From NCBI RefSeq assembly GCF_044324875.1, contig NZ_CP172185.1: a stretch of 64,000 bases of DNA; one strand, 5' to 3'. The DNA comes from Escherichia coli. GTDB lineage: Bacteria > Pseudomonadota > Gammaproteobacteria > Enterobacterales > Enterobacteriaceae. Both the position numbers and the translations under genes were made by a program. This document shows positions 1 to 56,545 of this stretch, piece after piece. The notes under the pieces were generated by a model, which did no database searches, was not told the origin of the DNA, and worked only from the letters and a program-made list of their open reading frames with translations. The first letter of the stretch is position 1; each line of letters opens with the position of its first letter.

Positions 1-1932
1 ACCGATACCGCGCCCCAGAGAAAGCAGAGCACCGCCCGGGGAAGTGAACGCAGCCAGCAGACCACCACGCAGCGTACCGAGTAGTCCGCGCACGCCACGA
101 AGCCGGACCGCAAGCCGTCCCGCACCGGTATCAAGACCGGCAAACAGCACACGCCAGCCGCCAATACCACTCATCGACCCACCGAGTACGCCGCGCAGCT
201 GCGTCAGTAACGGCAGCGCACGACCGAGGCCGGATGTGCCGGTCAGCAGGGAAAAGCCAAGACGCAGTTTTGCCAGCGGCCCCAGCAACACGCCGGTAGC
301 CAGTGACAGCGCCCCCGTGGCCGCAACCGCAGCCAGCAGTGCACCACCGGCAATCAGCAGTTGTTTTGTCAGTTCAGGGTGCGCCTGGGCCAGCGCGGTG
401 ACTTTCGCAATAACCCGGGTGAACGACTGCGTGACAGAACGCAGCGGCCCGTCAACGAGGTCAGCGACACGGATACGCAGCCCTTCCCATGCGCTGTTCA
501 GTGATTTCAGGTCGCCGTCCAGGTTGTCCGCCATGATTCTGGCGTTTTCTTCCAGTTCGCCGTTCGCTGCCTGAATCTCACGCGTCAGGCGCGGCAGGTT
601 TTTTTCGCCTGCCTGTTCAACCAGGCTCATCAGGGAGACATACGCCTCCTGCCCGGCAATATCTGAAAAGAACGAGACTTTTGCCGCGTTACCGTATTTA
701 CGGGTGGCCTGATACAGCTCATACAGGATATCTTCCATCGGGCGCATGTTCCCGTAAGCATCCTGCGTTTCCACGCCCAGCTGTTTCAGCGCCTTTGCTG
801 CCGCTTTAGGCGGGTTCACAAGGCGGGACAGACTGGAGCGCAGCGCCGTACCAGCATCACTGCCACGTATCCCCATCGACCCAAGCAACCCGGTCATGGC
901 TGCGGTCTGTTCAAGAGACAGACCGAGTGAGGCGGCGACCGGTCCCGTATATTTCATCGTCTCACCAAGCCCGCGCAGGTCGGTATTGGTGCGGGTGAAC
1001 GTTGCGGCCAGCGTGTCACCCACGCGGTTCATCTGGTCGGCAGACAACCCGAACTGCGTAAGGATATTTGAGCTGATATCGGCCGTCTGACCGAGGTCCA
1101 TGCCGCTGGCCGTTGCCAGATTCAGCACGCCGGGAAGAGCCGCCTGTATCGCCTGCGGCGTGAACCCCGCCATGGCAAGGAACGCCTGACCGCTGGCAGC
1201 ATCACCTGCGGTAAACTGCGTTTCGGAGCCGAGTTTAAGCGCCTGTTCGCGCAGCGCCTTAAACTGCGGACTGTTTTTGTCAATACGGGTCAGCGCCTGG
1301 ACGCGCGACATCTCCTTACCAAAACTGACCGCCGGTTGCAGGAAACGCCCGGCCGCATAGCCACCTGCCGCTGCCGTGCCGACTGCCGTAAATCCACCCG
1401 CTTTCAGTTTTCCCGCCATCTCCTGAGCGCGGAAATATTGCTGGCGTGCCTGCGTGACGCGTGCCAGAGTCTGCCGTTCACGTTCCAGCTGTTCGTTGTA
1501 TTGCTGTGTTCGCCGTATGGCCTGTTGAATGGTGTTGTCACTGCCGGAAAGCGCAATACCGTGACGCCGCAGCTCACCACCCAGTTCGCGCATTCGCTGA
1601 ACTTCACGCGCACGGACCTCATTGAGACGCTCAAGTTTGAGGCTCAAATCGTTCATCAGCTTTTTCTGTTTGTCAGACAGCACGGTTCCGGCGCGCTGAA
1701 TTTGCTGAAGTGCGCTTAACTGGCGTTGTGCCCGGGCAATGCCGTTTCCGGCCTTGTTTGCAGCCTCGCGGGCGCGATCAAATGAACGGGCGTGGCGTTC
1801 CAGGTTTTTGATCGCACCCTGCGTTCTCTGTATGGAGTCGCCAAGCTGGCCCATCATGCGACGGGCGTTTTCGGTGGGACGGGTCAGCCTGTCAACAGCG
1901 CTGAAGGCGACCCGTATATCAAGCGTTTTCAT
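1..1932 (-). CDS. P2-like phage tail tape measure protein (gpT-like), 3' end runs off the window
   Basis: ATG at 1932-1930 on the minus strand. Hand translation of 1621-1932 gives an uninterrupted, coiled-coil-like sequence (MKTLDIRVAFSAVDRLTRPTENARRMMGQLGDSIQ...). Position after E/E' matches P2 F-operon order. The plus-strand ORFs in the track here are antisense artefacts. Confidence 0.75.
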   Translation of the reverse strand, partial: MKTLDIRVAFSAVDRLTRPTENARRMMGQLGDSIQRTQGAIKNLERHARSFDRAREAANKAGNGIARAQRQLSALQQIQRAGTVLSDKQKKLMNDLSLKLERLNEVRAREVQRMRELGGELRRHGIALSGSDNTIQQAIRRTQQYNEQLERERQTLARVTQARQQYFRAQEMAGKLKAGGFTAVGTAAAGGYAAGRFLQPAVSFGKEMSRVQALTRIDKNSPQFKALREQALKLGSETQFTAGDAASGQAFLAMAGFTPQAIQAALPGVLNLATASGMDLGQTADISSNILTQFGLSADQMNRVGDTLAATFTRTNTDLRGLGETMKYTGPVAASLGLSLEQTAAMTGLLGSMGIRGSDAGTALRSSLSRLVNPPKAAAKALKQLGVETQDAYGNMRPMEDILYELYQATRKYGNAAKVSFFSDIAGQEAYVSLMSLVEQAGEKNLPRLTREIQAANGELEENARIMADNLDGDLKSLNSAWEGLRIRVADLVDGPLRSVTQSFTRVIAKVTALAQAHPELTKQLLIAGGALLAAVAATGALSLATGVLLGPLAKLRLGFSLLTGTSGLGRALPLLTQLRGVLGGSMSGIGGWRVLFAGLDTGAGRLAVRLRGVRGLLGTLRGGLLAAFTSPGGALLSLGRGIG

Positions 1933-2082
1933 GCTCTGCGTTCCCGCTGCGAAGGGCCGCCCGCTCACGCCAGGCGACCACCTCGCCGGGATCCATCAGG
2001 AAGATTTCAGCGGGAGACCAGTTGAAAATAACGGCGATATCCGCCACAAAGTCTTCAATATGCTCAAAGGGCACGACGGTTA

Positions 2083-2445
2083 TCAGCCTGCCGTCGCCGC
2101 CACGCTCTTCCCGCCAGAGTCCTGACCGGCCAAAAAATTAACCGCCACCCCGCACAGCTGAATAAAATCAGCGGACCCCATGCGCTTAAGCATAACCTCG
2201 TCCAGTCGCGGCGAAGTGACGCGCGGGAGTAACTCAAACATCGCGTCCGTTTTCATGTTCAGCACGTCAAGCAGTGACAGCCCGCGCAGTGAACCGGCCT
2301 GCTGTACAGCAGGCGTGATTTCCACATACGTGATTTTTTTGTTACCGAGCACAAGGGGTGTTTTCAGTGTCACGCCGCGCTCACTGGTCACGTCAGCCAC
2401 ATCAGCACCGTCAGTAACAGGGGCAACAACCGGATTTTCTTTCAT
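2083..2445 (-). CDS. P2-like tail assembly chaperone gpE; slippery TTTTTTG near the 3' end implies an E+E' frameshift product
   Basis: 120-aa ORF with GAGG ribosome-binding site before ATG 2445. Lies between the tube gene and the tape-measure gene. Heptamer TTTTTTG (minus-strand sense of 2131-2137) is 16 codons before the stop. Confidence 0.7.
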   Translation of the reverse strand: MKENPVVAPVTDGADVADVTSERGVTLKTPLVLGNKKITYVEITPAVQQAGSLRGLSLLDVLNMKTDAMFELLPRVTSPRLDEVMLKRMGSADFIQLCGVAVNFLAGQDSGGKSVAATAG

Positions 2446-2494
2446 GAATAAAACCTCAAATCAGGGGCGACGCCACGCGCCGCCGTGGAAAACA

Positions 2495-3013
2495 TTAACC
2501 ACCAAGACCAATCGCCGAGCGCACGCGGTCCGGGAAGACGCTTTTGCCGTCCTTGCGTTCGATGTGGTTCAGTAAATCAATCTCCAGCACCGGACGGTCG
2601 TTAATGCTGAGTTTGTAGTAGGTACTTTTGACCGCATAGGTGTGAGACGTGACCTCACCCTGTTTGGCCTCCCCGGTATCAATTTCCGTCACGCGACCGC
2701 GAAGCTCAATCTCGTACAGGTCACTCTGTTCTTCATCGTTGTAGTACTCACCGACAAAGCGCAGCAGCGTACCGTCAATCGTGCCGCCGTACTTGAGGAA
2801 CAGTTCGCGGGTCGGCCCGCCCATGGTGAAACTCGCATCCAGCGCGCCGTCATCCAGGCCAAGGTCGATATTTACTGCACCGGCCATACCACCACCGCGA
2901 TAGGCTTCCGTTTTACGGGTCAGTTTGGGGGGCGTGAAGCCGGTCACCCTGCCAATCTGGTTCACCCCGTCAGTAAACAGCGTGAACACCCTGAGATTTT
3001 TTGGTACGGCCAT
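2495..3013 (-). CDS. P2-like tail tube protein (gpFII-like)
   Basis: 172-aa ORF immediately downstream of the sheath gene; its ATG overlaps the sheath stop (TAATG). Size and position fit gpFII. Confidence 0.8.
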   Translation of the reverse strand: MAVPKNLRVFTLFTDGVNQIGRVTGFTPPKLTRKTEAYRGGGMAGAVNIDLGLDDGALDASFTMGGPTRELFLKYGGTIDGTLLRFVGEYYNDEEQSDLYEIELRGRVTEIDTGEAKQGEVTSHTYAVKSTYYKLSINDRPVLEIDLLNHIERKDGKSVFPDRVRSAIGLGG

Positions 3014-4296
3014 TAAGCACCTCCAAGCGTCGCAAATGCAGGACCAAAGAATTCATCAGTAAACGTCTGGTAAAGTTCCATATCCTCAAGCGGCGGAACG
3101 GGCGTGTACTTGTAGCGGATACGCACGCGTCCCTGACGAAGTTCCGTGGTGCTGTTATCCACCACGTCATACCAGCACTCCGCACCAACGAGACGTCCTG
3201 ACGTAACCAGCGCATCCAGTTTTGCGCGAATTGCGCTTAACACGTCTTTCACATTAGCAGGGGTCAGCGGGGCATCAATCGTTTCAAACTGCGCTTCCGC
3301 AACAGAATCAGCCAGCACCTGAGCGGTTCGCGTGTACACCTCAAAGATATACGCCTTCGTTTCCGGCGTACGGTTGCCCCAGAAGCGGAAACCGTTACGG
3401 CGAATGATGGTGGTGATTTCCTTGTTGTTGAGATTGTTGGCATCGCTGTCTTCGGACTGAAGGGACCAGAACACCCGGCTGGAAATACCCAGCACATTTC
3501 TTACCGGCACGTTGGACAGCGATTTATGCCAGCCCTGTTCGTGGTCAATACGTGCACGTAAACCGCAGGCGTACGCCGCAGCCGGGAAGACCTCATTAGC
3601 GCCGGATTTCGGGTTATAGGCGATGAAGTCAGGCCAGAGCAGCATAAGTTCGCGCTCGTTAAATCTGGCGCGGTAGCTGATTGCATCAGCGGGCTTCTTG
3701 CAGTTGTGACAGCCCGCGTAGACAAATGCGCGAAGTTTTTCTGCAATTACACACAGGGATTTTGTGACAGCTTCAGTATCCAGTCCGGGAGCTGCGATGA
3801 TGCGCGGACGGTAACCGATGGCATCATCCTGTTCAGCTATCAGAAGTGCATACATACCGGTATAATTACCGTCGCCATCCGTGCCACCAATGACATACTG
3901 GTCCTGCGTTTTGTGTGGGTATACAGGATGTGCATCTTCAGACTCATCAATACCAAAAAATGCCCTGTCTTCAGGATCCAGATGACCGAATGATGTAACT
4001 CCTGTATCCGGGGCGCCCTGAGAACTGGCATCAGGAACGCGCACCACAATCACCTTCGTGCTCACCTGGTCGGCGACAGCCTTAAGCGATTTGTAAAGCG
4101 TCCCCTTTGTGCCGGCCTTACCCAGCACATCACTGACGCGGGTCAGCAGTGTGGGTTTGTTCAGCGGGAACAGAGTTTCATCCGCGTCATCTGCCGTAGC
4201 CACAATACCAATAACACTGGAATCCACATCATTAATGGCGGTGGCAAGGCCGGTACTTTCCCTTACGCGCGCACCATGAAAGCGTGTTTCACTCAT
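3013..4296 (-). CDS. P2-like contractile tail sheath protein (gpFI-like)
   Basis: Track ORF 3013..4443; the likely true start is ATG 4296 (MSETRFHGARV...), preceded by AGGGTG. 427 aa with conserved sheath motifs (GFRFWGNRT, YTPVPPLE). Confidence 0.8.
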   Translation of the reverse strand: MSETRFHGARVRESTGLATAINDVDSSVIGIVATADDADETLFPLNKPTLLTRVSDVLGKAGTKGTLYKSLKAVADQVSTKVIVVRVPDASSQGAPDTGVTSFGHLDPEDRAFFGIDESEDAHPVYPHKTQDQYVIGGTDGDGNYTGMYALLIAEQDDAIGYRPRIIAAPGLDTEAVTKSLCVIAEKLRAFVYAGCHNCKKPADAISYRARFNERELMLLWPDFIAYNPKSGANEVFPAAAYACGLRARIDHEQGWHKSLSNVPVRNVLGISSRVFWSLQSEDSDANNLNNKEITTIIRRNGFRFWGNRTPETKAYIFEVYTRTAQVLADSVAEAQFETIDAPLTPANVKDVLSAIRAKLDALVTSGRLVGAECWYDVVDNSTTELRQGRVRIRYKYTPVPPLEDMELYQTFTDEFFGPAFATLGGA

Positions 4297-4369
4297 ATGT
4301 TTCACCCTTGTCTGGCTGGTTGATTTTGCGTAATCATTACCCACACACGCGGTAATCTCACCCCTTTGA

Positions 4370-4393
4370 TGTTGTCTCCTGACAGCGACAACA
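4370..4393. promoter_or_regulatory. Ogr/Delta-type late-promoter activator site (TGTTGTC-N10-GACAACA, containing TGT-N12-ACA)
   Basis: Perfect 7-bp inverted repeat with the P2 late-promoter TGT-N12-ACA geometry. Centred about 85 bp upstream of the FI ATG and about 77 bp upstream of the D ATG. Confidence 0.55.
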
Positions 4394-4457
4394 AAACAGC
4401 CATTCAACGCCGCTACGGTGCATGAAACCATTACAGAACGCACCAGGAGAGAACACC

Positions 4458-5549
4458 ATGAAAGAGCTGTCAGTTACCGTTCCGTCACCGGATATCGACA
4501 TCACCATCAACAACAACACACTGGCAAACCTCACAGAGCGACTCATGACGCTGACCCTGACGGATAACCGGGCCTTTGAGGCAGACCGCGTCACCCTCAC
4601 CCTTGACGATACGGACGGGCAGTTACAGTTGCCACCACGTGGCGCACGCCTGAGAGTGATGATTGGCTGGCGCGGGGAGGCGCTGGTTAACAAGGGTGTC
4701 TACATCGTTGATGAAGTGACGTGGGAAGGCCCGCCGGACAAACTGACCATCACCGCCAGCAGCGCCGATTTTCGCGAAGAGTTCAACGTGAAGCGTGAAG
4801 TCTCCTGGCACGACGTGACGGTAAAACAGGTTGTGTCAGCCATCGCGCACCGCTACGGCCTGAAAGCACAGATAAGCGATATCCTCATGGATATCGAAAT
4901 TGACCACGCAGACCAGACCGAAGAGAGTGATATATCCTTCCTGACCCGCATGGCTGAAATGCTGGGTGCGATTGCCACCGTAAAAAACGGCAGCCTGTTA
5001 TTCATTCTGCCGGGTGGCGGAACCGGGCCGGACGGAAAAGCCCTGCCTTCGTTCGCCATTACCCGCAGCAGCGGCGACAGTCACCGCTTTCGCATTGCTG
5101 ACCGTGATGCGTATACGGGGGTCCGGGCGCACTGGCTCGATCTGAAGTTCGGGCAAAAGAAAAAAGTGAACGTGAAGCGACGCAGGGAAGCCGGGAAACA
5201 GAAACAGGAGAAGAGCAGCAGCCGGGAAGGTGATTACATGGAAGGCGCGGAAGGTAACGTCTACGTTCTGCGCAGGACTTACCAGAATGAAGAAACCGCA
5301 CGACGTGCAGCAGCTGCAAAGTGGCAGGAACTACAGCGGGGCGCGGCATCATTCTCCATCACGCTGGCGCGCGGTCGTGCCGACCTGTACCCTGAAATGC
5401 ACGGCAGGGTAACAGGTTTTAAAAGCGAGGTGGACAATCAGGACTGGATTATTGCCAGGGTGGAGCACAGCATAGATGAAAGCGGCTTCACCACACAACT
5501 GGAGCTGGAAGCGAAAATCCCCGAATGGATAGCAGATTCAGGCGGATAA
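4458..5549 (+). CDS. P2-like tail protein D (gpD-like)
   Basis: Track ORF 4422..5549; the ATG at 4458 has an AGGAGA ribosome-binding site. Translation is gpD-like along its length (conserved SWHD, FLTR, DRxAYTGV, AKWxxLQRG, GFTTxLELE). Confidence 0.8.
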   Translation: MKELSVTVPSPDIDITINNNTLANLTERLMTLTLTDNRAFEADRVTLTLDDTDGQLQLPPRGARLRVMIGWRGEALVNKGVYIVDEVTWEGPPDKLTITASSADFREEFNVKREVSWHDVTVKQVVSAIAHRYGLKAQISDILMDIEIDHADQTEESDISFLTRMAEMLGAIATVKNGSLLFILPGGGTGPDGKALPSFAITRSSGDSHRFRIADRDAYTGVRAHWLDLKFGQKKKVNVKRRREAGKQKQEKSSSREGDYMEGAEGNVYVLRRTYQNEETARRAAAAKWQELQRGAASFSITLARGRADLYPEMHGRVTGFKSEVDNQDWIIARVEHSIDESGFTTQLELEAKIPEWIADSGG

Positions 5550-5592
5550 AATTAAAATGAGCCATCTCCACTCAGCCAGATAAGGAGAAGCC

Positions 5593-5844
5593 ATGTTCCG
5601 TTGTCCCCTGTGCGGTGCATCCGCACGTATCCGCACCAGTCGCAATGAAAATGATTCAGGCACAGTTCGCCTGAAGTACTACCAGTGCAATAACCTCGAA
5701 TGCGGGATCGGCTTTACCACACTGGAGGGTTTTAACAAATTCACATCAAAACGCGCCCCGTCGCCGCAGGGTACAGAGCGGATACCGTGGGAAGATTTTC
5801 CGGGATCTCACAGGGGGAATGCTCAGATGAATCTTGATATTTAA
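5593..5844 (+). CDS. ogr: Ogr-family zinc-finger late-gene transcription activator
   Basis: 83 aa. Begins MFRCPLCGASARIRTSRNE with CPLC...C(N)NLEC zinc-finger spacing. AAGGAGA ribosome-binding site. Confidence 0.85.
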   Translation: MFRCPLCGASARIRTSRNENDSGTVRLKYYQCNNLECGIGFTTLEGFNKFTSKRAPSPQGTERIPWEDFPGSHRGNAQMNLDI

Positions 5845-5990
5845 GAACAATAATCAGGTTGAGAGGACATCATAAGGCAAGTAGATTAACGGCAGATACT
5901 TTCCCGCAACCACGGGCAAGTATTTAATTATCCATGATGAAATATGACCTAAATTGTTTTTTGCCCGCCGGAAAGCGGGCATTTTTTTAT
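5845..5990 (+). repeat. Repeat unit A: sequence downstream of ogr ending in an intrinsic terminator (candidate phage right arm plus att core)
   Basis: Shares the core ggttgag...agtagattaac...ttatccatgat...gcccgcc-N-gcgggc-T7 with units B and C. Confidence 0.6.
5963..5988 (+). terminator. Intrinsic terminator, copy 1 (gcccgccggaaagcgggc + T7)
   Basis: GC stem-loop followed by a T-run on the plus strand. Confidence 0.75.
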
Positions 5991-6202
5991 TCTTTTGTGG
6001 TTATGGGGTCATCAGGAACCACGTGCAGATTATATTTTTGTTTTTTTGGCGTTCCTCCGGCAGCAACGAGTTCATCAATAAGACACTGACACGCCTGAAC
6101 ATCCCGGGCATGTCTTAGTTTCACCTTTATTGATTTAACCTTATCCTCACCGGAGGAGAAATGCAGTTCAATCTCAATATCGTTTCTTCGGAACAATCTC
6201 AT
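5987..6202 (-). CDS. Hypothetical small protein (71 aa) in an AT-rich islet
   Basis: ATG at 6202 preceded by a GGGGGG ribosome-binding site. AT-rich promoter-like sequence upstream, with TATAAT-like hexamers. No family recognised by eye. Confidence 0.45.
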   Translation of the reverse strand: MRLFRRNDIEIELHFSSGEDKVKSIKVKLRHARDVQACQCLIDELVAAGGTPKKQKYNLHVVPDDPITTKE

Positions 6203-6429
6203 ACGCCCCCCTGAATATATCAGAAATGCTAGTATCGAAAAATGAGAAAACAGTTAGACAGGAGAAACATATTAACACAAATCATTTATACCTATAGATG
6301 AAATTATAATTTCATTCATGAATATGATAGATAACTATATTGTGAACAAAATGAAAAATGGCTAAATTAAAAATGGGCATGGAGGAATGCCTCGTAATCA
6401 GTAATACATGATCCATACTTCCTTGTTTT

Positions 6430-6455
6430 GCCCGCCGGAAAGCGGGCATTTTTTT
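6430..6455 (+). terminator. Intrinsic terminator, copy 2 (hairpin identical to copy 1)
   Basis: gcccgccggaaagcgggc + T7. Together with copy 1 it forms a near-identical ~30-bp direct repeat flanking the AT-rich islet. Confidence 0.75.
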
Positions 6456-6657
6456 GGCGGTTACCATCGCCTCACCTTCCTGGTTCACACAAAGCAACCC
6501 TGATTTTCCATGAAAACTTCAGGGTTGAGCCAAAAGCACAAAGACAGTAGATTAACCAAGGGTACCCGCCACCTGCCAACAGGAACGGTATCCAGTACGT
6601 ATTAATGACTGACAATTCACATTGCTGTTTTGCCCGCCAGAAGGTGGGCATTTTTTT
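6456..6657 (+). repeat. Repeat unit B: paralogue of units A and C, ending in terminator copy 3
   Basis: Aligns by eye with unit C over about 200 bp. Contains a degenerate ogr 3'-end-like segment (ttcaca...gattttcc). Confidence 0.6.
6632..6657 (+). terminator. Intrinsic terminator, copy 3 (gcccgccagaaggtgggc + T7)
   Basis: GC stem-loop followed by a T-run. Confidence 0.7.
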
Positions 6658-6861
6658 GGCAGTTATCATGGACGCACCTTCATGACACATATTAAGCAGA
6701 CCTGATTTTTCCATGAAAAATTCATGGTTGAGACAAAAGCACAAAAACAGTAGATTAACCACGGGTGCCTGCCACCTGACAACAGGAAGGGGTGTCCATT
6801 ATCCATGATATACAAACGAAAAGTCTTGTCTTTTGCCCGCCGTTGCGCGGGCTTTTTTTTT
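6658..6861 (+). repeat. Repeat unit C: paralogue of units A and B, ending in terminator copy 4
   Basis: Same architecture as unit B. Confidence 0.6.
6835..6861 (+). terminator. Intrinsic terminator, copy 4 (gcccgccgttgcgcgggc + T9)
   Basis: GC stem-loop followed by a T-run. Confidence 0.7.
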
Positions 6862-6890
6862 GCCACCCTCACCAGTGAGGGTACCATCAT

Positions 6891-7112
6891 TCAGAGGCGC
6901 GTAAGCCACCCGGCGTTAACATCCTGCCCGTCAACCCTGACCGCAGAGTCTGAACGGCAGGCACCGGAAGCAGTACCAAAAACACCTCTGACAAGTTCCG
7001 CCACCTTCCCGATATCATCAGGCGCCACATTCCTCACCTCGACAGTGATCCGTGGCGTACCATCATCGTTAACAAGCGTGGCTTTAAGGCTGGTACGACG
7101 GGCAAATAACAT
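6891..7112 (-). CDS. Hypothetical small protein (73 aa)
   Basis: ATG at 7112 with an AGGGAGG ribosome-binding site about 9 nt upstream. GC-rich, between repeat unit C and the copA promoter. No family recognised. Confidence 0.45.
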   Translation of the reverse strand: MLFARRTSLKATLVNDDGTPRITVEVRNVAPDDIGKVAELVRGVFGTASGACRSDSAVRVDGQDVNAGWLTRL

Positions 7113-7172
7113 CAACACCCCCTCCCTTCGGTTCGTTGCACTGGCAGCACGATACCACCAGGAAAAAGAAAA

Positions 7173-7203
7173 GCCCACAACGTCAGGATTGCGGGCTTTT
7201 TTT
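7173..7203 (+). terminator. Intrinsic terminator, copy 5 (gcccacaacgtcaggattgcgggc + T7), related to copies 1-4
   Basis: Stem-loop followed by a T-run, directly upstream of the copA promoter. Confidence 0.65.
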
Positions 7204-7269
7204 CTTCAAAAATGGACACTACGTGGACACTGATTAAATAATCCTTTCTTAATCAGACTGTTAAAATGC

Positions 7270-7340: not shown

Positions 7341-9845
7341 ATGTCACAAACTATCGACCTGACCCTGGACGGCCTGTCCTGCGGTCACTGCGTTAAACGC
7401 GTGAAAGAAAGTCTCGAACAGCGCCCGGATGTTGAGCAGGCGGATGTGTCTGTCACTGAAGCGCACGTTACCGGGACTGCCAGTGCAGAACAGCTGATCG
7501 AAACCATCAAACAAGCGGGTTATGACGCATCTGTAAGCCACCCAAAGGCTAAACCGCTGGCGGAGTCATCAATCCCGTCGGAAGCACTGACAGCGGTTTC
7601 TGAGGCGCTTCCGGCAGCGACCGCCGATGACGATGACAGCCAGCAGTTGCTGCTGAGCGGCATGAGCTGCGCCAGCTGTGTCACCCGCGTACAAAATGCG
7701 TTGCAAAGCGTACCGGGCGTCACTCAGGCACGGGTAAACCTGGCGGAGCGTACTGCGCTGGTGATGGGCAGTGCCTCCCCACAAGATTTAGTGCAGGCGG
7801 TGGAAAAAGCGGGCTACGGCGCGGAAGCGATTGAAGATGACGCTAAACGCCGCGAGCGCCAGCAGGAAACCGCCGTCGCTACGATGAAGCGCTTCCGCTG
7901 GCAGGCAATTGTCGCACTGGCGGTGGGTATCCCGGTGATGGTCTGGGGGATGATCGGCGATAACATGATGGTCACCGCTGACAACCGCAGCTTGTGGTTA
8001 GTTATCGGCCTGATAACCCTGGCAGTGATGGTTTTCGCCGGCGGCCATTTTTACCGTAGTGCATGGAAAAGCCTGCTGAACGGTGCAGCGACGATGGATA
8101 CGCTGGTGGCGCTGGGTACTGGCGTGGCGTGGCTCTATTCGATGAGCGTCAACCTGTGGCCGCAGTGGTTCCCGATGGAAGCGCGACATCTTTATTACGA
8201 AGCCAGCGCGATGATTATCGGTCTGATCAATCTCGGTCATATGCTGGAAGCGCGCGCACGTCAGCGTTCTTCAAAGGCGCTGGAGAAATTACTCGATTTA
8301 ACCCCACCGACGGCGCGCCTGGTCACCGACGAAGGTGAAAAAAGCGTGCCGCTGGCGGAAGTGCAGCCAGGTATGTTGCTGCGCCTGACGACCGGCGATC
8401 GCGTGCCGGTAGATGGCGAGATTACCCAGGGCGAAGCATGGCTGGATGAAGCGATGCTGACGGGCGAACCAATCCCGCAGCAAAAAGGCGAAGGCGATAG
8501 CGTCCATGCCGGGACAGTGGTACAGGACGGCAGTGTGCTGTTTCGTGCCAGTGCGGTCGGCAGCCATACTACGCTGTCACGAATCATTCGCATGGTGCGC
8601 CAGGCCCAGAGCAGCAAGCCTGAAATCGGCCAACTGGCGGATAAAATCTCCGCTGTGTTTGTGCCGGTGGTGGTAGTCATTGCGCTGATCAGTGCGGCAA
8701 TCTGGTATTTCTTTGGTCCGGCACCGCAGATTGTCTATACCCTGGTGATTGCCACCACGGTGCTGATTATCGCCTGTCCGTGTGCGCTGGGACTGGCGAC
8801 GCCGATGTCGATTATTTCGGGCGTCGGGCGGGCGGCTGAGTTTGGTGTGCTGGTGCGGGACGCCGACGCGCTGCAACGCGCCAGTACGCTCGACACCGTG
8901 GTGTTCGATAAAACCGGGACGCTGACCGAAGGGAAGCCGCAGGTTGTCGCAGTAAAAACATTTGCTGATGTTGATGAAGCGCAAGCATTGCGTCTGGCGG
9001 CGGCGCTGGAGCAAGGTTCCAGCCACCCGCTGGCACGGGCGATCCTCGATAAAGCAGGTGATATGCAGCTACCGCAGGTCAACGGTTTCCGCACATTGCG
9101 CGGGCTGGGTGTGAGCGGTGAAGCTGAAGGTCATGCGGTATTGCTGGGCAATCAGGCGCTGTTAAATGACCAGCAAGTTGATACTAAAGCGATTGAGGCA
9201 GATATTTCAGCTCAGGCATCGCAAGGTGCAACGCCTGTGCTGCTGGCGGTTGACGGGAAAGCGGTAGCCCTGCTGGCTGTACGCGATCCGTTGCGTAGTG
9301 ATAGCGTGGCGGCGCTGCAACGCCTGCATAAAGCGGGATATCGTCTGGTGATGTTGACCGGGGATAACCCAACCACCGCCAATGCGATCGCCAAAGAAGC
9401 AGGGATTGATGAGGTGATAGCCGGCGTGCTGCCGGACGGTAAAGCCGAAGCGATCAAACGTCTTCAAAGTGAAGGACGTCAGGTGGCAATGGTGGGCGAC
9501 GGCATTAACGATGCGCCAGCGCTGGCTCAGGCGGATGTCGGTATTGCGATGGGTGGCGGCAGTGATGTTGCCATTGAAACCGCGGCGATTACCCTGATGC
9601 GCCATAGCCTGATGGGTGTTGCAGATGCGCTCGCGATTTCCCGCGCAACGCTGCGCAATATGAAGCAGAACCTGCTCGGTGCGTTTATCTACAACAGCAT
9701 TGGTATTCCGGTCGCCGCCGGTATTTTGTGGCCGTTCACTGGAACACTGCTTAACCCGGTGGTTGCCGGAGCGGCAATGGCGCTCTCGTCGATTACCGTA
9801 GTGAGTAACGCCAACCGGTTACTGCGGTTTAAACCGAAAGAGTGA
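7341..9845 (+). CDS. copA: Cu(I)-translocating P-type ATPase
   Basis: 834 aa. Two N-terminal CxxC metal-binding domains, CPC motif, DKTGT phosphorylation site. Confidence 0.97.
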
Positions 9846-10273
9846 TTGGTATTTACTTAATGCGTTTGTGAGATCCAGTTCTTGTTGCGCTCCTTTTATG
9901 AGTCATGCCATATAAAGTGACTGGCGCAGGGAGCGCGCAGGGGGCGGCCAATCGCCGCCGCCCCCTGCCCCCCCGGGCTCTGGCGAACAAAATCGCCGCT
10001 GCGCGGTACCCTCAGCTTATCCCTTGCGGCTACCGGGTCGGGCGCGAGGTAACATCCCTGTAAAACGCGCCCTCAGCCCACATCCATGTGGGCTGCCCCG
10101 GCCTTCAGGGAACGCCTCGGCGATTTTGACGCCACCAACACCGGTGCAGTCTTTCGTTTCAAAGCAAAAACAATTTTTCGATCATATTTAAGCTACCACT
10201 GAACAAGCCTCATAACTCCATTTGCGCCATCCCTCCCCGCGCGCTAGCATGATATTTCACAAAGGGAGGTCGT

Positions 10274-11068
10274 ATGGATCTGTTGTACCGGGTAAAAACG
10301 CTTTGGGCCGCGCTGCGCGGTAATCATTACACCTGGCCTGCTATCGATATCTCTCTTCCCGGCAATCGCCATTTTCATCTGATTGGCAGTATTCATATGG
10401 GTAGCCACGATATGGCTCCCCTGCCCACCCGTTTGCTCAAAAAGCTCAAAAACGCCGATGCGCTGATCGTCGAGGCGGATGTTTCCACCAGCGATACGCC
10501 TTTTGCTAATTTGCCTGCCTGCGAGGCGCTGGAAGAGCGCATTAGCGAGGAGCAACTCCAAAATCTGCAGCACATTAGCCAGGAGATGGGCATTTCTACC
10601 TCACTCTTTTCTACCCAACCGCTGTGGCAAATCGCGATGGTTCTTCAGGCGACGCAGGCACAAAAACTGGGGCTGCGGGCAGAATACGGTATCGATTACC
10701 AGCTATTGCAGGCGGCGAAGCAACAACATAAACCCGTGATTGAACTGGAAGGGGCTGAAAACCAGATTGCCATGTTGCTCCAGCTCCCTGACAAAGGACT
10801 GGCGCTGCTGGACGATACGCTGACCCACTGGCACACCAATGCACGGTTGCTGCAACAAATGATGAGCTGGTGGCTGAATGCGCCGCCGCAAAATAATGAA
10901 ATAACGCTGCGTAATACGTTCAGTCAATCGCTGTACGATGTGCTGATGCATCAGCGAAATCTCGCCTGGCGGGACAAATTATGCGCCATGCCGCCGGGGC
11001 GCTATGTGGTCGCAGTCGGTGCACTACACCTGTATGGAGAAGGGAATTTGCCGCAGATGTTGCGCTAA
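10274..11068 (+). CDS. ybaP: TraB-family protein YbaP
   Basis: 264-aa ORF matching E. coli YbaP from memory. Confidence 0.9.
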   Translation: MDLLYRVKTLWAALRGNHYTWPAIDISLPGNRHFHLIGSIHMGSHDMAPLPTRLLKKLKNADALIVEADVSTSDTPFANLPACEALEERISEEQLQNLQHISQEMGISTSLFSTQPLWQIAMVLQATQAQKLGLRAEYGIDYQLLQAAKQQHKPVIELEGAENQIAMLLQLPDKGLALLDDTLTHWHTNARLLQQMMSWWLNAPPQNNEITLRNTFSQSLYDVLMHQRNLAWRDKLCAMPPGRYVVAVGALHLYGEGNLPQMLR

Positions 11069-11150
11069 AAAAATGGCCAATATCGCTATTGGCCCGTCAA
11101 AGAGGAATTTCATATTTTTATTATTATGCCGTCACTTTAAGCGACGGTGT
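11067..11150 (-). ncRNA. chiX: ChiX (SroB/MicM) small RNA
   Basis: Reverse complement reads ACACCGTCGCTTAAAGTGACGGCATAATAATAAAAA...GGCCAATAGCGATATTGGCCATTTTTTT, in the ybaP-ybaK intergenic region. Confidence 0.9.
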
Positions 11151-53848: not shown

Positions 53849-54092
53849 AGCGCAATAACCTTACGTTGTTTTTATAAAAACTGTTATAAGTGCAAAATGG
53901 CATCTGAATCGATCGCAGTTTGGCATTCGAATCGATCATGATTTGGCATCCATCTCCGATCACAGTTTGGCATCACAATCGATCACGATTTGGCATGCTT
54001 CCGATCATTGATTGGCATCCTGCCAGTCACTCCGGGAATTAACTCTTTTCACCACAGTCTCCATTGCCGTGTTTAAACCAGTGGAGACGTCA

Positions 54093-55658
54093 ATGTCCAG
54101 AAAGAGAAAATCCAGGAGCACTATGGAAACCTGTTTTAAGATCCTTCAGCTCAAGTTCGACAAGAAGCTGACTAACCGTTGTATCGGACTGACGTTACAC
54201 ATCAGCGCCTCAACCGTTTTTGAGGTTCTTGCCCGCTTCAAAGCCTCTTCTCTGTCATGGCCATTACCTGCTGATATATCCCATGACACGCTGGAGAAAC
54301 TCATTTTTCCGCCCAAAGACACCTTTGCATCAGAGCTTGTAATGCCTGACATGTTGTACTTCGATACGGAAATGAGAAAACCAGGTGTGACGCGGCAACT
54401 GTTGTGGATGGAATACAAGGCACAGGCGGGTAACAAAGCGATGGGATACTCGCACTTCTGCCGTTGCTACCGGGAGTGGAAAAAAACGCGACGTCTCTCC
54501 ATGCGCCAGGAGCATCGTGCCGGCGAAAAGCTTTTTATCGACTTCTGTGGTCCTACGGTTCCTGTTATTAATCCGGACACCGGTGAGATACGCCGCGTGG
54601 CAATCTTCGTGGCCGTAATGGGGGCGTCCAACTATACCTACGTTGAAGCGTGCGAAGGTCAGGACATGATGTCATGGTTAAATGCCCACAGCCGTTGCCT
54701 GACCTTCCTGGGCGGCGTACCGAAGCTGCTCATCCCCGATAACCTCAGAAGCGCAGTGAAAAAGGCCGATCGATATGAGCCTGTCATCAACGACAGTTAT
54801 CAGGCACTGGCTGAGCACTATGGCACGGTTATCATCCCGGCCCGACCACGCAAACCTAAAGATAAACCAAAAGCAGAAAACGGCGTCCTCATCGTTGAAC
54901 GATGGCTTCTTGCCCGCATCCGTAATGAAACCTTCCACACGCTCAGGGCGCTGAATGCGCGCCTTAGGGAGTTACTGACAGACATGAATAACCGGCCAAT
55001 GAAGGGGTACGGCAATCAAACCCGTGCAGAACGCTTCCGCATACTGGATGCGCCAGCACTCTCTCCGCTGCCTCTGGCACCTTATGAATACACGGAATAC
55101 AAAGCTGTGAAGGTTGGCCCTGACTACCACGTTGAATATGCCCGTCACTGGTACTCCGTTCCACACGAACTGGTCGGTCAGCGTCTGTCACTGAAGGCGG
55201 GGCAGTCGGTGGTACAGCTCTGGCACAAGGGGCAGTGTGTGGCGCAACATCCGCGCAGCACACATGAATATAAACACACAACCAATCCGCTTCACATGCC
55301 AGAGCGCCACCGGCAGCACGGGACATGGACACCGGAACGCCTGATCGAGCAGGGAAAACGTACGGGCCCGTCCACAGGCCGGGTGGTTGAATCCATGCTG
55401 AAGGCAAAACCCCATCCGGAACTGGCTTATCGTGCAGTTCTGGGGCTGCTGGCACTTCAGAAAAAATACGGCCCGGAACGGCTGGAAAAGGCCTGTTACG
55501 TTGCCCTGCACTATAACGCCCCTGACAGACGCTTTATCGACAATCTGCTGCGTCACCATCGGGAGAACCTGGAGCTTCCATTATCCCGCCAGGGCGAACA
55601 ACATCCGGCATATGCTTCAGAGCATGAAAACCTGCGTGGTCCGGGCTACTACCACTGA
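54093..55658 (+). CDS. istA: IS21-family transposase IstA
   Basis: About 521 aa from ATG 54093. N-terminal HTH followed by an integrase-like catalytic core. Confidence 0.85.
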   Translation: MSRKRKSRSTMETCFKILQLKFDKKLTNRCIGLTLHISASTVFEVLARFKASSLSWPLPADISHDTLEKLIFPPKDTFASELVMPDMLYFDTEMRKPGVTRQLLWMEYKAQAGNKAMGYSHFCRCYREWKKTRRLSMRQEHRAGEKLFIDFCGPTVPVINPDTGEIRRVAIFVAVMGASNYTYVEACEGQDMMSWLNAHSRCLTFLGGVPKLLIPDNLRSAVKKADRYEPVINDSYQALAEHYGTVIIPARPRKPKDKPKAENGVLIVERWLLARIRNETFHTLRALNARLRELLTDMNNRPMKGYGNQTRAERFRILDAPALSPLPLAPYEYTEYKAVKVGPDYHVEYARHWYSVPHELVGQRLSLKAGQSVVQLWHKGQCVAQHPRSTHEYKHTTNPLHMPERHRQHGTWTPERLIEQGKRTGPSTGRVVESMLKAKPHPELAYRAVLGLLALQKKYGPERLEKACYVALHYNAPDRRFIDNLLRHHRENLELPLSRQGEQHPAYASEHENLRGPGYYH

Positions 55659-55674
55659 CAGAAGGAACAACAGT

Positions 55675-56430
55675 ATGAGTGATAACCTGTTAAACAAACT
55701 GACCCAACTGAAACTCCCGGCGATGGCCGGGAGCCTGATACGGCAGCGGGAAACGCCTCAGACCTACGACGAACTGTCGTTCGAGGAAAGGCTGACGCTG
55801 CTGGTTGATGACGAGCTTCTGAGCAGGGAAAACAGCCGTGTGGCACGGTTGAGAAAAAATGCCGGCCTGAAATACCAGGCAACACCGGAAGGGCTGCGCT
55901 ATCCGGCCTCAAGAGGTCTGCGGGCTGAACAGATGAGAGAACTGCTGAACGGCCACTACATAACCCACAGGAAAAACCTGCTGATAACCGGTCCGACAGG
56001 ATGTGGCAAGAGCTGGATAGCCAATGCGCTGGGCGAACAGGCATGTCGACAGAAACACAGCGTCCGGTACTGTAGAACCGGGCGATTACTGGAACAACTG
56101 GCTCAGGGACGTGTTGATGGCAGCTGGCTGAAATATCTGAAACAGTTGCAAAAAATACAGGTTCTAATCCTGGACGATCTGGGGCTGGAACAGTTAAGTA
56201 ACGCCCAGTGTAATGACCTTCTGGAGCTCATAGAGGATCGTTACGGACAAAGCAGCACGATAGTGGTAAGCCAGTTCCCGGTAGATAAATGGCATGGTCT
56301 GATGGAGAACCCAACAACAGCAGATGCCATCCTGGACAGACTGGTACATAACTCACACCGAGTGGTCCTTCAGGGAGAGTCACTGAGGAAAAATCCCCCG
56401 GTAGTGGAAAGCAGCGAAAAAACGCGTTAA
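55675..56430 (+). CDS. istB: IS21-family ATP-binding helper protein IstB
   Basis: 251 aa from MSDNLLNKLTQLKLP. Walker A (GPTGCGKS) and Walker B (ILDDLG). Starts 17 nt after the istA stop. Confidence 0.88.
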   Translation: MSDNLLNKLTQLKLPAMAGSLIRQRETPQTYDELSFEERLTLLVDDELLSRENSRVARLRKNAGLKYQATPEGLRYPASRGLRAEQMRELLNGHYITHRKNLLITGPTGCGKSWIANALGEQACRQKHSVRYCRTGRLLEQLAQGRVDGSWLKYLKQLQKIQVLILDDLGLEQLSNAQCNDLLELIEDRYGQSSTIVVSQFPVDKWHGLMENPTTADAILDRLVHNSHRVVLQGESLRKNPPVVESSEKTR

Positions 56431-56545
56431 AAAGCGGTAGAAAAAGTTAAGTTCCCGGTTGATCGAATGGATGCGAATCGCTGATCGGACTTCGATGCCA
56501 ATCCGTGATCGAATAGAGCGGAATACGCAATAAGTACAGAGGTCA

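Follow-up and report, generated by a model that had tools for sequence, protein, structure and literature searches.

TRIP1e, a strain-variable additional copy of the TRIP1/RRS repeat, lies between copA and ybaP in an Escherichia coli genome

The 428-bp spacer between copA and ybaP in this Escherichia coli genome contains TRIP1e, an already published member of the TRIP1 family of structured repeats, which are also known as replication risk sequences (RRS). The assignment is based on locus, length, identity and family membership. Taken as a whole, the best explanation (probability of about 0.85) is that the element is a strain-variable extra TRIP1/RRS copy that most likely acts at the DNA level. 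By itself, TRIP1e at copA–ybaP represents ordinary variation between strains rather than a new element. It also offers a natural experiment: among complete E. coli genomes, about 6% have one more full-length RRS, in what appears to be the gap-forming orientation. Features of the region are listed in Table 1; the window refers to the whole 64-kb stretch of DNA that was analyzed.

Table 1. Features of the copA–ybaP region, with positions in the window.
Feature	Position	Strand	Remarks	Basis
copA (Cu+ P-type ATPase), 834 aa	7341–9845	+		ORF list, annotation of the identical allele in CFSAN018748, alignments
Left flank of spacer, 34 bp	9846–9879		AT-rich (35% GC), allele-specific	Alignments
TRIP1e repeat, additional RRS copy	9880–10155	− (G4 strand)		Similarity boundaries
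Terminal stem GCGCTCC/GGAGCGC	9887–9936	−	Encloses an AAGGAG Shine-Dalgarno-like sequence	Folds
Perfect 12-bp GC hairpin	9937–9968		First palindrome of the preliminary description
G-quadruplex (G4) motif GGGGGGGCAGGGGGCGGCGG	9955–9974	−		Regex scan
TwoAYGGAY-like domain	9990–10129	−		Rfam RF01731, compensatory pairs
Hairpin GGGCGCG...CGCGCCC	10040–10072	−	Inner loop ACAGGGAUGU (10052–10061)
Hairpin CAGCCCAC-AUGGAU-GUGGGCUG	10074–10095	−	Second palindrome of the preliminary description	Loop AUGGAU on the minus strand
Right flank of spacer, 46 bp	10156–10201		AT-rich (30% GC), allele-specific	Alignments
Conserved ybaP upstream region	10202–10273	+		94.4% identity to K-12 over 72 bp
ybaP (TraB/GumN family), 264 aa	10274–11068	+

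Identity of the spacer element

A preliminary description of this spacer (9846–10273) had reported that it lacks the ybaQ gene expected from the K-12 map, has no open reading frame (ORF) of 60 aa or more and contains two GC-rich palindromes. Each of these observations was borne out. The largest ORFs touching the 428-bp spacer are 55, 52 and 45 aa long. The first hairpin has perfect 12-nt arms (9937–9948 and 9957–9968) around an 8-nt loop, and then comes a run of seven C (9968–9974), whereas the second has perfect 10-nt arms (10074–10083 and 10086–10095). Neither palindrome was matched in any of 100 shuffles of the window, so they are not expected by chance. In K-12 MG1655, the copA–ybaP interval is 794 bp long and indeed contains ybaQ (b0483) together with three REP units. 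A TBLASTN search with YbaQ gave no match at E≤10 in the whole window, and the best TBLASTN match inside the spacer (E=0.36 over 21 aa) was noise. When the spacer was compared with the K-12 interval by BLASTN, only the last 72 bp before ybaP could be aligned, with no trace of ybaQ. On the other side, homology of copA to the K-12 allele stops within the last two codons. The region 10202–10273 is common to the E. coli alleles examined, and Citrobacter shares only its ybaP-adjacent part. Downstream of ybaP are sroB/ChiX (11067–11150, minus strand; 81 bits), which lies outside the spacer and was the sole Rfam family to pass its threshold, ybaK and ushA.

As the preliminary description had supposed, the palindromes belong to a repeat element, and this structured GC-rich repeat is present in other intergenic regions too. 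We searched the spacer by megablast against 5426 complete E. coli genomes. The full 428 bp was found in 346 of them (343 at ≥99% identity), and the central ∼270 bp had 90–96% matches in essentially every genome, at a median of four places per genome. These other sites are the aqpZ–lysO and dusC–yohP intergenic regions, whose copies are 90–96% identical to the element over ∼270 nt. Compared with K-12, the element is 93.7% identical to TRIP1a and 92.3% identical to TRIP1c over 271 nt. An alignment of six copies gave sharp boundaries at ∼9880 and ∼10155.

The TRIP1 repeats are those of Rudd (1999). Among them, TRIP1e was described as a 265-bp repeat, 94% identical to TRIP1a (84–94% across the family), located between copA and ybaP, at 38 bp from the former and 124 bp from the latter, with CP057178.1:1232542-1232806 as its reference record (Li et al., 2024; Genes 15:236, PMC10888264). 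It was found in 232 of 6725 genomes (3.4%), always in a single orientation, and recombination between TRIP1e and other TRIP1 copies was documented in the same study (PMC10888264). The element in the window has the same locus and the same copA and ybaP offsets (a spacer of 428 bp as compared with 38+265+124=427). By those offsets it occupies 9884–10149, which gives 265–266 bp, and it resembles the published element in GC content (64–65% here, ∼65% in the comparison), in identity to TRIP1a (∼94%) and in its orientation, which is the same in all carriers. Its frequency among complete genomes is 6.4% here, as against 3.4% of 6725 in Li et al. That RRS and TRIP1 are the same repeat was stated previously (PMC11194060), TRIP1a being RRS-lysO and TRIP1c being RRS-dusC (Pham et al., 2023/2024). 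Thus, the element, which the preliminary description had not recognized, is the published TRIP1e/RRS repeat. The text of Li et al. (PMC10888264) does not cover the absence of ybaQ and REPs, the G4/RRS function or the TwoAYGGAY/CsrA-like hairpins discussed below.

Two other classes of repeat were considered and rejected. REP/BIME elements are likewise intergenic, GC-rich, palindromic and multi-copy; however, their units are ∼35 bp long and occur in hundreds per genome, whereas TRIP1 is ∼270 bp long and has 1–5 copies per genome. No REP consensus was found in the element, and the three REPs of K-12 align to gaps in the window. A MITE does not fit either, as the ends of the element are not inverted repeats and its flanks share nothing with each other or with those of other copies. 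The left flank (9846–9879) has no relation to the K-12 interval or to the flanks of other TRIP1 copies, and the right flank is equally unrelated to K-12.

Two additional copies deserve mention. On a 2.8-kb MAG contig (L041), a TRIP1e copy 98% identical to that of the window has the copA flank on one side and is joined on the other side to the flank of a TRIP1b (putP–efeU type) copy; this junction reflects either a TRIP1-mediated rearrangement or an assembly chimera. In Escherichia whittamii, a putative TRIP1b copy (L098, 8449–8740), so called from its sequence type and not from annotated flanks, has its third arm enlarged by ∼75 nt of additional, inserted GC-rich sequence.

Folding, probable replication orientation and predicted action

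Read along the minus strand, the element consists of an outer stem, the AUGGAU hairpin, the ACAGGGAUGU hairpin, a third arm containing AAGGGAUAAG, the 12-bp GC hairpin and a terminal stem. The outer stem (9988–10003 with 10113–10128) encloses the two hairpins and the third arm. Predicted RNA folds had z-scores of about −5 on both strands relative to shuffles, and single-stranded DNA (ssDNA) folds had z-scores of −6.9 on the G4 strand and −6.2 on the C strand. An alignment of 23 copies, taken from Escherichia species, Pseudocitrobacter, Kluyvera and another enterobacterium, showed compensatory changes in 13 of 69 consensus pairs. In the terminal stem, pairs 319–324/363–368 (alignment positions) showed compensatory changes in three TRIP1b copies, and the GC hairpin carried a double compensatory change (CGGC/GCCG to AGGA/TCCT) in the dusC–yohP copies.

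When only pairs predicted on both strands were counted (49 pairs), G:T cells exceeded A:C cells by 17 to 2 on the G4 strand; the raw count of 111 to 2 is biased because the structure was predicted on one strand. This modest imbalance is consistent with selection for the structure on the G4 strand, either as ssDNA or as RNA. It was rejected as proof of an RNA, as G:T pairs in ssDNA explain it equally well. The AUGGAU hairpin was invariant in 23 of 23 aligned copies, most of which were retrieved with a pattern requiring that loop. Because the retrieval pattern demanded those loops, their invariance is not an independent test, and we discarded it as a sign of loop-specific selection, most copies from outside E. 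coli having been retrieved in this way. At the minus-strand end of the repeat (9880–9905), the AAGGAG sequence is enclosed within a stem. Most other copies have an ATG 8–9 nt after AAGGAG that opens short, non-conserved ORFs of 5–27 codons (for example, MMNQHITTS and MLNTHIELKIPL, each followed by a stop, and MMKLNKRF...). The window copy has no such ATG. A small gene at this place was rejected and the ORFs were treated as chance, because the window lacks the start codon and the peptides are not conserved.

The G4 motif of the window, GGGGGGGCAGGGGGCGGCGG, corresponds to the published RRS G4 sequence of K-12, GGGGGTGCAGGGGGCGGCGG (PMC11194060), with one T-to-G change that produces a run of seven G. 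A regex scan found no such motif on the plus strand of the element. In K-12, the G4 lies on the plus strand at lysO in the right replichore and on the minus strand at dusC in the left replichore, that is, on the template of the lagging strand at both RRS, as published (PMC11194060). Window positions 7269–64000 are collinear with K-12 from 511 kb to 457 kb in reverse (56 kb), apart from one IS insertion, and the net GC skew of the window plus strand is negative but weak. Given the reversed collinearity, the minus strand of the window corresponds to the K-12 plus strand in the right replichore. We therefore infer, from synteny and a weak skew in a window that contains neither oriC nor dif, that the clockwise fork should use the G4 (minus) strand as its template for lagging-strand synthesis, as happens at RRS-lysO. 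In its identity (90–94%), in its G4 motif on one strand only, which is the putative lagging-strand template, and in its strong ssDNA fold on both strands, TRIP1e resembles RRS-lysO and RRS-dusC. It differs from them in being confined to a minority of strains, and its gap activity is an extrapolation from theirs. Moreover, its site is ∼400 kb closer to the origin than RRS-lysO and is not at the flank of the Ter macrodomain, and it thus bears on the claim that the position of RRS relative to the Ter macrodomain matters.

Previous experiments indicate what such a copy may do. Ectopic RRS copies in the gap-triggering orientation each gave a RecA/SSB-loaded lagging-strand gap of ∼2 kb (Pham et al.). 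According to a 2026 preprint, the G4 strand blocks lagging-strand synthesis in vitro when it is the template of the lagging strand, and the C strand also blocks in this role, although less efficiently (∼66% of encounters). As ectopic copies in this orientation give gaps, the activity of TRIP1e is most likely exerted at the DNA level. In the mechanism that we propose, the G4 strand of TRIP1e would fold once unwound, and the folded strand would block Okazaki-fragment synthesis and leave a transient post-replication gap. By analogy with the other RRS copies, TRIP1e is expected to trigger such lagging-strand gaps at copA–ybaP. As an extra homologous repeat, it could also support rearrangement of the chromosome. 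That ybaQ, the orphan HigA antitoxin gene, is missing would be a by-product of the allele and not the function of the element.

Strains without TRIP1e are the large majority, and any function at the copA–ybaP site must therefore be dispensable. With regard to orientation, TRIP1a and TRIP1c were found in both orientations at the same loci (O157:H7, E69 and SCPM-O-B-8794), with opposite orientations in different strains both at aqpZ–lysO (L003/L006) and at dusC–yohP (L007/L046). The share of reversed copies was previously reported as 27% for TRIP1a and 49% for TRIP1c (Li et al.; PMC10888264). The presence of both orientations in natural strains implies that RRS orientation is not strictly constrained in nature, and the reversed copies bear on the published claim that it matters. 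In the O157:H7 aqpZ–lysO copy, the adjacent flanks differ as well and the aqpZ terminator hairpin is absent.

Alleles and history of the copA–ybaP interval

ybaQ was present in 4834 of the 5426 complete E. coli genomes (∼89%) and TRIP1e in 347 (∼6%, or 6.4%). We classified the alleles in an evenly spaced sample of 59 chromosomes. The most frequent class contained ybaQ with 1–5 REPs (592–996 bp; 40 chromosomes), followed by ybaQ with an annotated RelE/ParE-family (HigB-like) toxin gene (869 bp; 12 chromosomes), the TRIP1e allele (428 bp; 4 chromosomes) and an internal deletion of ybaQ (171 bp; 3 chromosomes). Thus, copA–ybaP is a small hotspot of alternative cassettes, including a higBA remnant with REPs, a ybaQ deletion and an RRS. 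The toxin gene stands beside ybaQ in about a fifth of the sampled genomes, and in ABU 83972, the sole strain examined in this respect, it is frameshifted (L145, 1135–1436). The short 171-bp allele was considered as an empty ancestor and rejected: in strain MS1737 it keeps the 3′ end of ybaQ and a K-12-type copA end, and actually derives by internal deletion from a ybaQ allele.

YbaQ is a HigA antitoxin, whose homologs in Kosakonia and Escherichia albertii directly follow HigB-like toxin genes at unrelated loci, and whose Citrobacter homolog is an orphan at a different site. The copA–ybaP spacers of Citrobacter (153 bp) and Pseudocitrobacter (90 bp) contain neither ybaQ nor the repeat. On the basis of the HigB-linked homologs and the empty outgroup spacers, ybaQ at copA–ybaP is an accessory higBA remnant; the K-12 gene is an orphan antitoxin left from such a module, and ybaQ and TRIP1e are both derived states at this interval. 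The preliminary description had suggested that ybaQ was deleted or replaced by a palindromic repeat. It was right that the gene is gone and that a repeat is present, but the direction of the event is not established, because the outgroup spacers are short, relatives of YbaQ are linked to HigB, a residual higB persists and the codons at the copA end point elsewhere. Deletion of ybaQ is just one possible history, as the gene is accessory and Citrobacter and Pseudocitrobacter have neither insert. As to which allele is older, the signals are mixed. The last two copA codons are AAA GAG in the window, as in Citrobacter, and AAG GAA in ybaQ alleles, which hints that TRIP1e may not simply have replaced the interior of a ybaQ allele. 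At the right junction, ∼20 bp of the window allele resemble the K-12 type.

This history raises the possibility that the element is a functionless passenger, that is, a structured repeat brought in by recombination or horizontal import of a divergent copA–ybaP allele and kept by linkage. In favor of a passenger, the allele has a low frequency (6.4%) and varies little (343 of the 346 full-length copies at ≥99% identity, as noted above), there are at least four alternative alleles at the interval, outgroup genera lack either insert, and copA is more diverged from K-12 (96.9% identity) than the ybaP side (98.2%). On the other hand, the element retains 90–96% identity to copies elsewhere with compensatory changes in its stems, its G4 motif is intact, and RRS copies triggered gaps at every ectopic site tested. 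The last point also means that a DNA-level effect of TRIP1e is to be expected whether or not it is selected. We consider the passenger hypothesis somewhat unlikely.

Transcript-level readings and other features of the window

The minus strand of the element shows a likeness to the TwoAYGGAY RNA (RF01731, clan CL00106; Weinberg et al., 2010), in which two hairpins with loops of the AYGGAY type are surrounded by a closing stem. The full-length match on this strand scored 31.5 bits (E=0.049), and other TRIP1 copies scored similarly (30.6 bits for K-12 TRIP1a and 31 bits for Pseudocitrobacter). All of these values are below the gathering threshold of 43 bits. The first loop, AUGGAU, fits the motif, and the second, AGGGAU, has a purine at position 2; a third arm, the G4 hairpin and the terminal stem lie beyond the RNA model. 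The whole 64-kb window contains only two ACANGGAYGT sites, which are 28 nt apart on the same strand, each within one of these hairpin loops. The two loops, ACAUGGAUGU and ACAGGGAUGU, are close to the SELEX consensus of CsrA, ruACArGGAugu (quoted in PMC5694010), with GGA in the loop, and TwoAYGGAY was previously proposed to be a CsrA-binding sRNA (PMC4333381). The TRIP1/RRS papers checked (Li et al., 2024; Pham et al.; the 2026 preprint) do not mention CsrA, nor do they report that the G4 strand resembles TwoAYGGAY and CsrA sites.

It is conceivable that a transcript of the G4 strand adopts the TwoAYGGAY-like fold and uses both loops as CsrA sites, thereby titrating or recruiting CsrA. The Rfam match and the loop sequences speak for such a role, as does the fact that the two-hairpin pattern also retrieved Csr/Rsm-like arrays and genuine TwoAYGGAY RNAs in other bacteria. 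However, the match is below threshold, and a scan of 9700–10400 detected no sigma-70-like promoter, nor did it place any terminator-like site in the spacer. Furthermore, both neighboring genes run antisense to the G4 strand, at this locus as well as at K-12 TRIP1a. Read-through transcripts would accordingly have the loops of the C strand (AUCCAU), in which there is no GGA. The CsrA CLIP-seq table of Potts et al. (2017) has no flag for ybjE or dusC and gives no significant expression change for either. The element thus lacks the hallmarks of a Csr/Rsm sponge sRNA that were looked for, namely a promoter and terminator in the spacer and CLIP-seq flags at ybjE and dusC. We regard an RNA role as quite improbable in comparison with the DNA-level action of an RRS copy.

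We scanned one genome per species with a two-loop pattern and obtained at least 120 loci. Among the matches listed were the genuine TwoAYGGAY RNAs (89.8 and 75.5 bits), in Lachnospiraceae, the Csr/Rsm-like arrays, which are tandem, and many gammaproteobacterial copies with long, variable closing stems. It is tempting to speculate, although we think it unlikely, that the enterobacterial RRS/TRIP1 elements are one branch of a much wider TwoAYGGAY class, characterized by a conserved pair of hairpins whose loops fit the CsrA consensus and which sit within a long closing stem. If so, either RRS would have an unrecognized RNA or CsrA-linked role on the G4 strand, or the motifs called TwoAYGGAY RNA, from Clostridia to Gammaproteobacteria, would be DNA-level, structure-forming replication elements.

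Several observations were made among the matches listed. A core of two hairpins with ACAxGGAyGU loops was seen in Reinekea, Saccharospirillum, Nitrincola, Marinobacter, Pseudoxanthomonas and Stenotrophomonas (loci L128, with two copies, L129, L050, L051, L039, L056, L118, L017, L020, L043, L059 and L064). The stem enclosing this core is near-perfect and 17–47 bp long, and its sequence is wholly different between copies, even within a genome. Several of these copies are located at contig ends. In Pseudocitrobacter, the strand opposite the RRS copy carries another two-hairpin unit at a distance of ∼80 bp (L042, 2218–2281, plus strand; L117, 5670–5733, plus strand), which scores 49.2 bits, above the TwoAYGGAY gathering threshold. 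Another enterobacterium (L092, 1594–1657, minus strand) has such a unit ∼175 bp from its RRS copy, also on the opposite strand.

The element might alternatively terminate transcription between copA and ybaP or act there as an insulator, in place of the K-12 REP/BIME array. The element begins 34 bp after the copA stop codon, its plus-strand RNA would form very stable GC hairpins, and K-12 has its three REPs in the equivalent position; but no hairpin is followed by a U-run, the terminator scan was empty in the spacer, and at other loci the element is found in either orientation, which together make this function very doubtful. Finally, the heavy decay of ybaQ put forward in the preliminary description has the position of the spacer alone in its favor and is refuted by TBLASTN and BLASTN of the spacer, which gave neither protein- nor DNA-level similarity to ybaQ, in contrast to the true deletion allele of MS1737.

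Elsewhere in the window, positions 1–7268 belong to a P2-like prophage integrated between glsA and copA, of which they cover the right part, with tape measure, sheath, tube, gpD and ogr. K-12 synteny is restored 72 bp before the copA ATG. Of the 5426 genomes, only 28 had at least 80% of the sequence at 1–7268. Strain LH50-c has the same prophage together with a ybaQ allele containing IS1397, which indicates that the prophage and TRIP1e are independent. Compared with K-12, the window also has a 2.65-kb insertion between fadM and ybaV (53878–56529), which contains two ORFs (548 and 332 aa) that, judged from their translations, are putative IS21-family IstA and IstB.
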